Shown here one piece after another: positions 9,001 to 12,000 of a DNA stretch of 21,366 nucleotides (position 1 is its first letter; each line of letters opens with the position of its first letter). The stretch is from a virus, in the UHGV virus genome UHGV-2192570, one strand, 5' to 3'. A program made the position numbers.

Positions 9001-12000
9001 TAATGTCGTCCCACTTTTCGGAGTGTATTTTTAATTAAATCAATAGATTATGTGTAAGTGGGACAACTGGGACAACTGGGACGACGTGTTTTTGTATATA
9101 TATAAAAAAATAAATTGAGAGGATGAATTCATGAGTGAAATTACTGTTAAAAATATCTCACCTGCGGTAGCTGGCTGGTGGGCGAAGTTCAGAGACGACG
9201 GCACGGAATGGTACAGCCCGATTGCTGCATGGGCGCTTTGTGAGGTCGCCCCCTGTAATACGGGATGTGTGTATCAGGAGATACTACCCGTCTTGCCAGG
9301 TGAAGCAGGCATGGAGCCGCATTATTCTGATTGTGGGGCGTGCGAGTGCCTTTATCTGCCGGACAAGAAGTTTGTTCACTGCGGGGAGTCATGGGTATTT
9401 GCCTGGTATCCGGTTGACGATAACCATCAACGCTAAAACCAGTGAGGTGGACGTATGACAGCACAGATTGCAGCTTACGGGCGGCTGGTGGACGACCCGC
9501 AGGTAAAACAGACCAGCAAGGGTACACCCATGACGCTGGCGCGTATGGCGGTATCTTTGCCATGCAGTCAGGCACAGGACGGACAGGCGACGTTATGGCT
9601 ATCAGTCCTGGCATTTGGTAAGCAGGCCGACGCGCTGGCGAGACATGAAAAAGGTGACCTTATCAGCGTGGCGGGTAACATGCAGATCAGCCAGTGGACC
9701 GGACAGAACGGAGAAATACGGCAGGGCTGGCAGGTTATCGCTGACAGCGTAATCAGTGCCCGTTCGGCGCGTCCTGGCGGGAAGCGGGGGCAACAGGGGA
9801 AGGCGACCGAAGCACTGGAAAGAGCAAAACGACAGACCGGACAGCAGGGAAATCAGCCACCAGCGGGAGGTGATGACCCGTTCTCTGACGATATTCCTTT
9901 CTGAATGACAGGAGCACAACATGAACCAGCAGACCACACAACAGGACCAGACCACACGCAGACCCACGGAGCGCCCATCATGGCGACACATGACGAAGCG
10001 GCAGCGAAAAAACCACAGACGCGTAAACCGACTGGCTGAGTACTGGCCTGAACTGTTTGGGGCAGAGACGATAAAGCCCCTGAAAACGGGCATAATACGT
10101 GATGTGCTTGAGGACGCTAAATCACGGGAATTACCGATTGGTCATGGCGTATTACGTGGCGCATTAACCTCATACATCCACACGACGCGATACCTGAAAG
10201 CCATTGTCGCTGGTGGCCCTCGGTATGGACTGAACGGGCAGCCTTGCGGGGAAGTGACGTCGGATGAAAAAGCCGTAGCCCGTGGGATACTGAAACAGCG
10301 ACTGGAGCAGATGAAGCAGAAAAACATCCAGCAGTAATCAGCCGGAGGTAAAGCCAGTGATAACGGACAGCGTGGCACAGAAACTTGAGGAGCGCGGTTT
10401 ATGGCGACGTGCGGCGACCCGATGGGCTGAGGTTCTTCTTCATGCAGGAACGGACAGGGAACGCGAGGAAGCTGCCAGACGTCGGGCGATATGCATCAGT
10501 AAAACCCGTCGTATGCCTGAACAACTGGTCACCTTTGGCGATGTGAAAAAGGCCGCAGACAGAACGCTGAAAGAGATGGGGATTAATCCACAGGATGAAT
10601 GGAGAAGTTACAGCTTCAGTGATGCAGGCGACGATTTAGCGCTATCGTGATACGCATCTCATCGCCGTATTTGCTCAATTATCGCGATTCGCTATAATCA
10701 CCACCGAAGAGCCGTTGATGGTGTTCGCCTCTGGCAACTGGAGCCAGACTGCATGAAGCCAGTCAGCGGCTTTTCAGCACTCATTTTGATGTGTACTTGT
10801 CACACACATCGGGATGAGTGAATGACGAAAACATCACGGTGATTTCGTCATGCCGCGATAAGAATGTTCCCCTTTGGGCAATTGAAGCCCTCTGTGCAGA
10901 AGGTTATCGCGGTCAGGTTGTGATAAAAACGCGCCTCTTTGAGCAATTGAAGCTCACTGTAAAGCGGCTTATCACAGCAGGCTGTAACGGGCGCTCATCT
11001 TCTGGCAACTGAAGCCACCTGTACAGAGACCCGTTACGGCTGACCCTGAATGATTTCGCCCCGTGCAATTGAAGCACCCAGCGGAGTTATTCAGGGTTTT
11101 TTATTGCCCCTCCACCAGCACCACATCTGTAGCATTGATGCGTATACATTCGCCGTCAATTGCACCATTCCGGCCCTCACCGTCACGCACCACAACAGAA
11201 TGACCAGGCAGGCCATAACGCGCCACCTTTCGACGAACACCATCACCAGCGCCCTCACGACGCTCAAACACATTAATCCGCTCAAGAAGACCATCACGCA
11301 CCATAGCTTCCAGCGTGCGCCTTGTTGATTCGATCTGATACCGGCTGTTGAATGAATCCATACCATGCAGCAGGTAAGCCACACCGGAGACATCAAACGG
11401 CGGGTTGCCAATTTCAACGCTGACCCACGCCAGATTGTCGGGAGTGAAGTAACTGAGGATCTCTTTTTTGTATTGCGTCAGTCTCATAATGGCCTTTCTT
11501 ATTGTAGGATGAGTCCCTCATACAATAAGCCATAAGGCAAATTTTGAAAGGACAGAATCGGCGAGGGCAACAGGTGATACGTGATGACAAGGTTGAAGCG
11601 CTGGAAGCACAAGGGTTATGCGATGGGTTGCGGCAATATGAGGCAAATATGAATATTCAAATTGTTGTGTTGTGAGGTACGCAAGATGAAAAAAATTGAT
11701 TCTTTACGAATAAGTAAAGTAGCTATTATATCAGTATCTTTATTATTTCTTAGCGCGTGTTCTACAAATAATATTGAGAATATGCCGAGAGATGCGCGTG
11801 TAAAATTTGCTCTAATGAGGGCTTATTCAGATAACAAGTTTGATAATTCAACAGTTATCGGCGAAGTGTTAGGATTGAGTTGCGCCAGACAACTTGGAAA
11901 AACATTAGTAACACCATTGCCAGGGGGAAGCGCTATTGCTACATCCTCTGAGGGCGACATTACTTCTGAGTCGGATGCAATACAGGACATGCGATATAAA

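Follow-up and report, generated by a model that had tools for sequence, protein, structure and literature searches.

What does an integrative island of Escherichia coli gain from a tandem series of hairpins that share one loop and vary their stems? [quoted passage not shown] An earlier note on this DNA had described five stem-loops between a promoter and a terminator, and proposed that they form a protein-binding array, a sponge or a toxin-inhibitor RNA, perhaps partnered with a ProQ/FinO protein. We followed up this proposal computationally and suggest a different answer, namely that the array is probably a multi-variant antisense weapon or sensor against Stx phages.

A structured non-coding RNA unit

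The array unit extends from promoter to terminator at 10671-11105 of the + strand, and folding of 10706-11106 yields seven adjacent hairpins. Its components are as follows.

10671-10698, + strand: sigma-70-type promoter (-35 TTGCTC at 10671-10676, 16-nt spacer, -10 TATAAT at 10693-10698)
10706-10775, + strand: hairpin M1, loop AACUGGA, then UUUUC (z = -3.75)
10778-10820, + strand: hairpin Ha, 17-bp stem using U-G pairs
10822-10851, + strand: hairpin Hb, nearly invariant among variants
10852-10913, + strand: M2, extended hairpin, loop AAUUGAA
10917-10978, + strand: M3, extended hairpin, loop AAUUGAA (z = -4.26)
10980-11041, + strand: M4, extended hairpin, loop AACUGAA (z = -3.67)
11042-11105, + strand: M5 and U-run, forming an intrinsic terminator (hairpin 11042-11098, loop AAUUGAA; z = -8.51)

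The motif GCAAYTGRAGC, which includes the shared loop, occurs exactly five times in the window, always on the + strand and within the locus (10734-11075), with the AAYTGRA loops at 10736-10742, 10880-10886, 10945-10951, 11007-11013 and 11067-11073. The inner stems covary as had been described (TGGC/GCCA, GGGC/GCCC, GAGC/GCTC, TGGC/GCCA and GTGC/GCAC, respectively), and the last four motifs are indeed spaced by 65, 62 and 60 nt from start to start. A regex-plus-fold scan for a 4-bp stem closed by an AAYTGRA loop found five instances in the window vs. one in a whole 58-kb Stx phage. These motifs are only the tips of larger structures, each capping an extended hairpin of 57-70 nt. The 401-nt + strand folds with a predicted energy of -178.5 kcal/mol (z = -10.1; 0 of 100 shuffles as good) and the single modules have z-scores from -2.5 to -8.5. 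The modules are 52-69% alike, and Tandem Repeats Finder leaves the array undetected because its units are too diverged. Rfam 15 has no match in 10500-11300 at E <= 10.

The proposed promoter stood up to comparison, being nearly invariant in all 11 island arrays read (that of the window and ten related loci); a single A/G spacer position varies among its 28 nt, so that it is better conserved than the hairpins, which differ by up to 17%. It should be noted that its -35 box matches the consensus at 3 of 6 positions, below the -35 rule of the scan tool. The terminator has the canonical form, with the M5 hairpin followed by a T-run (11097-11102) that overlaps the stop codon (11101-11103) of a convergent 128-amino-acid gene.

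The stems keep pairing in homologous loci. In a comparison of six orthologous arrays, standard pairs occupy 96.7% of the 807 pair cells, compared to 37-46% in controls with slid partners; both partners have changed in seven pairs, and in many others one partner alone differs, by way of G-U (examples are U-G to C-G in Ha and A-U to G-U in M4). The outer stems differ between modules at most positions, each still pairing over 9-18 bp, and compensatory C-G to U-A changes distinguish the outer stem of M3 from that of M2. The module classes also differ in stem register, and no one consensus structure fits the MAFFT alignment.

Several observations point to the + strand. The - strand folds 28 kcal/mol less well (-150.3 kcal/mol, z = -5.4), among 28 unique island modules, 22 form a more stable hairpin on the + strand (mean difference 3.4 kcal/mol), and G-U pairs in these 28 modules number 67 vs. 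40 on the + and - strands, respectively. As for coding capacity, an open reading frame (ORF) on the - strand is frameshifted in island variants. A 64-codon ORF on the + strand is open in the variants, but its changes are non-conservative and it has no homologue; there is no reason to consider it coding. The data support the non-coding, structured + strand unit put forward earlier, and argue for a non-coding RNA gene of about 400 nt, whose transcription from the + strand we infer from its conserved promoter and structure.

The five modules are antisense to five alleles of one phage site

The locus was compared by BLAST to E. coli genomes, phages and plasmids. Each module is an antisense copy of one segment of about 62 nt in a giant LPD38/LPD5 gene of Stx-converting phages. 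All phage matches converge on a single site of this LPD5/LPD1/MuF_C/LPD38 gene, and in every one of them the + strand of the array corresponds to the antisense strand of the gene. The clearest case is M2, which is 98-100% identical over 61 nt to the site in Stx1 and Stx2 phages (175 phage records and hundreds of prophages), Stx2a/Stx1 phages and prophages being among the matches. The direct BLAST matches of M3, M4 and M5, although weak, fall on this site as well, in Stx phages of E. coli and Shigella.

Six allele classes of the phage site were obtained from IMG/VR (A, A′, B, B′, C and D), and the five modules have five different classes as their best match. M1 is closest to class B (94%; LPD38 gene site of an E. 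coli G8 prophage, L003 6001-6069) and M2 to class A′ (98% in the module-vs-class comparison). M3 is closest to class A (79% globally, and 84.6% over 52 nt to AU5Stx1 and Stx2a phages), M4 to class C (72% globally, and 82.5% over 40 nt to the Shigella phages POCJ13 and 75/02 Stx) and M5 to class D (77% to the IMG/VR contig L223, with an unusual GUGC/GCAC inner stem common to both). In the island variant L006, the inner 37 nt of M4 are identical to allele C. Since the modules are antisense to five allele classes of one phage site, these results point to antisense targeting or sensing of phage mRNA rather than to generic protein binding.

Two wider searches added little. A loose two-core pattern gave about 120 unrelated environmental matches in IMG/VR and was uninformative, while a metagenome search with the promoter pattern returned two contigs only, both identical to known variants.

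The phage site is a variable hairpin in a conserved virion gene

The phage gene encodes a product of 2,807 amino acids with LPD5, LPD1, MuF_C and LPD38 domains, and comes last in the Q-dependent late operon, adjoining attR. Its homologue in phi24B, gp47, is an abundant virion protein and a proposed ejection protein (preprint 10.64898/2026.04.10.717836). The hairpin site lies at about amino acid 1865, directly after the MuF_C domain and some 25 kb from terS/terL, and its loop encodes ...G-L-Q-L-P... on the sense strand.

All six allele classes fold as a long hairpin (z from -2.0 to -6.0) followed by a T-run on the antisense strand. The peptides that they encode differ greatly: SRDNPQYSGLQLPKEERSYRGS, NPDGSLYRGLQLPKDEHSRQGS, AAEWLHAVGLQLPEANTINGSS and ...AGVLQLHGDSDHQGS. 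Between alleles, the 22 codons of the hairpin show a nonsynonymous divergence (pN) of 0.12-0.24 and a ratio to synonymous divergence (pN/pS) of 0.5-1.7; in the next 100 codons, pN is 0.000-0.004 and pS reaches 0.28. The hairpin peptide is almost free to change, and the stretch that follows it is nearly frozen. Judged by these allele comparisons, the phage hairpin site is under selection at the nucleic acid level. The hairpin stands at the edge of a variability peak of about 200 nt whose surroundings are conserved. Of 12 phage alleles, 8 are slightly more stable in the antisense orientation, with 22 vs. 9 G-U pairs in its favor (p = 0.07). Distant gp47 homologues (34% identity) are missing the hairpin segment, and comparison of the phage site to Rfam gave chance-level matches only. 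A recoding role for the phage hairpin, as a stimulator of frameshifting, was considered and rejected, the stop codons of the alternative frames not being conserved between alleles.

Array variants and linked genes

Of 5,426 complete E. coli genomes, about 113-116 contain the array locus, and most of these are of STEC serotypes (O157:H7, O111:H8, O103:H2, O145 and O43). Its immediate neighbors in the window are the following.

9455-9904: SSB gene (ssb)
9921-10337, + strand: ProQ/FinO-family RNA chaperone gene (Pfam PF04352, E = 3.6e-23), its product being a candidate partner of the array RNA
10357-10650: PerC gene
11101-11487, - strand: 128-amino-acid ORF, convergent to the array

The gene order ssb, FinO-like, perC, array is constant in all island variants with upstream genes read, and the suspected link to a ProQ/FinO protein is borne out in each of them, the FinO-family gene lying two genes upstream of the array. 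The NCBIfam FinO and ProQ matches of its product are under the cut-off. A scan of 100,044 species genomes with the FinO protein gave one distant Serratia locus, without any array.

Most arrays have five modules, with four in L239 and three in L008. These shorter arrays (L008 2990-3110 and L239 1570-1760) come about when modules recombine at their conserved core. In L008, the 5′ half of M2 is joined to the 3′ half of M4, such that the outer stem cannot form, and the array is without a terminator U-run. This chimera and the missing U-run indicate that some arrays decay or recombine.

The slot downstream of the array is variable. L008 has a dcm and type II restriction pair in place of the 128-amino-acid gene, L238 has lost the gene by deletion and L239 carries a frameshifted copy, and the array persists in all three; we consider the gene to be dispensable cargo. 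Its product matches nothing in Pfam, PHROGs, PADLOC, NCBIfam or PDB. The family has members 60-68% identical in Salmonella, Klebsiella, Enterobacter, Serratia, Yersinia and Pectobacterium, where the gene sits at the end of primase-SSB-PerC islands beside a PRiA4_ORF3 gene, and where perC is followed by TGCGCA-rich iterons instead of hairpins. We rejected the 128-amino-acid protein as an obligate partner of the array, given its replacement, loss or frameshifting where the array stays and its homologues in islands that lack arrays.

A trans-antisense model and its alternatives

How could such an array act? We propose that its RNA works in trans as an antisense RNA of the FinP/FinO kind, with modules for several alleles, and that by pairing with the late mRNA of the phage it knocks down gp47; we judge the chances of this reading to be evenly balanced. 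Pairing in vivo, the part played by the FinO-like protein and the effect on the phage are what we infer here. On expression of the late operon, the 7-nt apical loop of the matching module would meet its complement in the loop of the mirror hairpin that the phage mRNA forms. Pairing would then spread to a duplex of about 60 bp, probably aided by the FinO-domain chaperone of the island, as FinO aids FinP-traJ pairing, and the duplex would block translation and/or be cut by RNase III. With less full-length gp47 made, phage progeny would be impaired, the outcome being either phage exclusion or interference of a satellite with its helper. Five allele-specific modules would widen the range of phages covered. 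The loop itself fits such a role: the YUNR U-turn motif, which Franch et al. reportedly found in 1999 to be typical of antisense recognition loops, can be read in AAYUGRA, with YUGR present in all five modules and in all phage alleles.

A number of findings weigh against this model. Near-perfect matches to known phages are limited to M1 and M2; M3-M5 are only 72-79% identical to the closest alleles found, which implies that their duplexes would be imperfect unless closer alleles occur in phages yet to be sampled. No phage sequence matches Ha or Hb, nor does any E. coli sequence outside the island, and these two hairpins have no target. The related islands of other genera have neither the FinO gene nor the array. 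On the phage side, the variability peak of the gp47 genes (L176-L221) extends about 140 nt past the hairpin on the N-terminal-coding side, into the end of MuF_C, where the density of variable sites is 0.42-0.58 vs. about 0.1 elsewhere; the antisense model alone is insufficient to account for this. Lastly, compensatory changes in the island modules keep each module's own fold and lower its complementarity to the phage (U-A in M1 vs. G-C in the phage, for instance). Such changes, made at the expense of complementarity, imply selection on the hairpin itself, which a protein-binding role would explain too.

The trans-antisense model can be extended to the phages themselves. The array may be a heritable, expandable library of phage-derived antisense hairpin cassettes, each of which would neutralize one allele of the ejection-protein gene; the phages may themselves have one of these cassettes, for exclusion by antisense in cis. 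The diversity of alleles at this site would then be driven by an arms race, and new cassettes would be taken from phages, perhaps by short-patch recombination. If Stx prophages express the hairpin as a cis-antisense exclusion RNA, the hairpin and T-run would be kept as RNA body and terminator, the site would diversify to escape the RNAs of other prophages, and the island would gain from holding several alleles. A promoter-like sequence, TTGCG(A/T)-N17-TA(T/C)(T/A)TT, is found upstream of the phage hairpin at a distance equal to that between the island promoter and M1. However, this too must be set among the difficulties: the site is weak (8 of 12 positions) and inseparable from coding constraint, and the sequences upstream in island and phage show no significant homology (p = 0.14), so that a phage antisense promoter remains unproven. 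A phage-encoded cis-antisense RNA from the hairpin site is plausible but unproven, and we regard the cassette library as a whole as tentative.

The compensatory changes that run counter to phage complementarity would be expected if the hairpins were protein decoys, that is, mimics of a phage RNA element that titrate a protein reading their shape and AAYUGRA loop (phage-encoded, the island FinO-like protein or host ProQ), with mRNA pairing being irrelevant. Conservation of loop and fold while the stems drift, the presence of five tandem copies and the adjacent FinO-family gene all agree with this idea. It leaves unexplained, however, why modules track alleles along the whole 62 nt, internal loops included, and why M2 can be 100% identical to one allele, or M4 of L006 identical to another over its inner 37 nt. 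Proteins of the FinO family, which help FinP to pair with traJ, bind terminator hairpins that carry a 3′ tail, a feature seen here in M5 and, weakly, in M1 alone. No candidate phage RNA-binding protein was identified, and we think the decoy explanation unlikely. A CsrB-type protein sponge is not supported, as GGA is not conserved in the loop and GAA occurs as often. Of the interpretation given in the earlier note, the structured, covarying RNA unit and its linkage to FinO were supported, and the sponge and antitoxin roles were not.

The complementarity between modules and phage alleles would also serve a helper sensor, in which the array RNA represses or sequesters a component of the island until titrated off by late mRNA of the gp47 region, a signal to the satellite that the late phase is under way, with the different modules sensing several helper variants. 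The island has a satellite-like gene content (int, P4-type C4/isrK immunity RNAs, Ash/Icd, a DUF927 primase, Ant-like proteins and an Stx-type Q). Against this, no complementary target was found in the island other than a weak inverted match of 10-19 nt in the dispensable 128-amino-acid gene, and there was no sign of mobilization of the island by Stx phages; we hold a sensor of this kind to be quite unlikely.

Satellites commonly copy cis-sites of their helpers, and the array lies near the primase and ssb genes and borders the variable cargo slot. The hairpins could accordingly be imagined as DNA-level elements, cruciform or single-stranded DNA sites copied from a phage to hijack packaging, priming, recombination or cassette exchange. 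This is improbable given the G-U asymmetry in favor of a + strand RNA, the conserved promoter and terminator that frame the unit, and the position of the phage site, about 25 kb from terS/terL and in the middle of the last late gene. The origin-like iterons lie elsewhere (12283-12490) and no integron-type integrase is present. For the same reason, that separate iteron-like repeats exist, and because its stems covary, the array was rejected as a set of origin iterons.

The variation in module number (three, four or five) and the L008 array, with its chimeric module devoid of an outer stem and its lost U-run, are what one might see in a decaying relic, made of phage gene fragments that were captured, duplicated and left without function. 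A relic is nonetheless very improbable, since compensatory changes maintain pairing in a non-coding context, the promoter is nearly invariant, the modules are trimmed exactly at the hairpin boundaries and the array has been kept in about 115 genomes that differ in serotype. Least credible of all is the toxin-inhibitor RNA suggested earlier, a type III toxin-antitoxin-like RNA neutralizing the 128-amino-acid protein: a tandem structured RNA does lie beside a small protein of unknown function, with its terminator overlapping the stop codon, but the gene is convergent rather than downstream on the same strand, its product has no ToxN/AbiQ-like or PADLOC match, some islands retain the array after replacement, deletion or frameshifting of the gene, homologues of the protein from other genera are encoded on islands without arrays, and the repeats are only 52-69% alike.

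The island and its ties to Stx phages

The remaining features of the island are listed here in order.

1-1254: integrase
1299-1366: int-alpA RNA (Rfam score above gathering)
After the integrase and int-alpA RNA: Rha and Ant-like regulators
4033-6066: Icd/Ash ORF, with isrK and C4 within its 3′ part
5653-5729: isrK RNA (Rfam score above gathering)
5754-5841: C4 antisense RNA (Rfam score above gathering)
6628-8769: DUF927 primase
Beyond the 128-amino-acid ORF and before Q: PerC-like ORFs
13300-13695: Q antiterminator

In strain RM10042, the same island is inserted between yicC and dinD. The isrK, C4 and int-alpA RNAs indicate a P4/P1-type RNA immunity module, as predicted from the Rfam matches. 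The island Q protein is 90% identical to Q of the Stx1 phage AU5Stx1 and about 90% identical to Q of many Stx1a and Stx2a phages. It could therefore act in trans on a resident Stx prophage and activate its late operon, potentially including stx, the lysis genes and gp47. An Stx-type Q is the second tie between the island and Stx phages, besides the array modules.

Three other observations concern the island. The ORF at 3300-4046 has the RefSeq label GIY-YIG nuclease in the RM10042 island, and its best PHROG matches are anti-repressor (Ant) families; by analogy, its product could induce a resident prophage, as P4 epsilon acts on P2. Iteron-like direct repeats, AAAAA(C/G/A)TGCGCAAAA, occur at 12283-12490 as two pairs (12-nt spacing) 115 nt apart and one further copy. 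All four TGCGCA sites of the window fall within this region, and related islands of other Enterobacteriaceae have TGCGCA-rich non-coding DNA directly after perC; the repeats are a probable replication origin. Finally, genes for a lambda-type major capsid protein E and for a product like the head decoration protein D lie downstream of the Q region (17787-19194, - strand). They are missing from the RM10042 version of the island, and could be a remnant of a neighboring prophage or part of a capsid-forming satellite.

Implications and comparison with known systems

Our literature searches found no paper describing the array. If the trans-antisense model is true, the array would be the first case of a mobile element aiming antisense RNA units, in tandem and for several alleles, at another mobile element. 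Its specificity system would be compact and made of RNA alone, perhaps assisted by a FinO-type chaperone, and would cover several Stx phage variants. It would account for a hypervariable but hairpin-preserving spot in a giant, otherwise conserved virion gene, and offer a concrete candidate RNA partner for the ProQ/FinO-domain proteins of mobile elements. It would also connect an uncharacterized STEC island, which has PerC regulators as well as an Stx-type Q, with how Stx phages live and spread, and hence with toxin production and STEC evolution. Were the cassette library to hold as well, a CRISPR-like logic with protein-free target recognition would reside on a satellite-like island of Stx phages. 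The model is readily testable with existing phages (933W and phi24B) and plasmid-borne arrays.

Several known systems resemble the array in part. CsrB/RsmZ RNAs also have many hairpins with one loop motif. In these RNAs, however, GGA is the defining element, whereas in the window array it is present in M1 only and toggles between A and G in variants; the array has no match to their Rfam families, and its units are copies of a phage coding segment. Type III ToxI shares tandem structured RNA units on a mobile element and a link with phage defense, but consists of near-identical repeats of 34-36 nt, directly upstream of a toxin gene on the same strand and processed by the toxin, none of which is true of the array. 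The P4 CI and P1/P7 C4 RNAs are small antisense immunity RNAs of satellites and phages, with C4/isrK present on this same island (5653-5841); they act on transcripts of their own element via short seeds, and have another fold and other Rfam families. The Pas small RNAs of enteropathogenic and enterohemorrhagic E. coli prophages were also considered, and correspond to other, unrelated loci.

The array shares with CRISPR the logic of tandem short segments that match invaders, with different units for different invader variants. It differs in having no repeat-spacer layout, no cas genes (none in the window) and no leader-type acquisition; all of its units target one phage site and are self-folding hairpins of about 60 nt. 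A direct precedent for an antisense RNA that acts on phage late genes comes from STnc6030 of the Salmonella prophage BTP1, which is antisense to DNA-injection and tailspike genes; its expression in trans abolishes BTP1 infection, and escape mutations fall in the complementary region (PMC7067206). Both are non-coding RNAs antisense to late injection or structural genes of a phage. STnc6030 is a single cis-antisense prophage transcript of about 786 nt, without hairpin modules, multiple alleles or a linked chaperone gene, and is not carried on a separate island; no sequence relation to the array is expected.

The closest parallel is with FinP/traJ/FinO of F-like plasmids, where a short structured stem-loop antisense RNA ends in a stem-loop that is the terminator, the target forms complementary hairpins, recognition is loop-to-loop (as proposed here) and a FinO-domain chaperone is encoded on the same element. 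FinP-type near-perfect complementarity is seen for M2 (98-100%) and M1 (94%), as compared to 72-79% for M3-M5. FinP is encoded in cis, overlaps a single target and has two stem-loops, whereas the array would act in trans from another mobile element, on a target deep in a phage coding region, through five tandem allele-specific modules. Because the RNA is encoded on a different element than its target, the array is not a member of the cis-antisense class. It would be an antisense RNA all the same, yet one that is arrayed, multi-allelic and encoded by an island against a phage.

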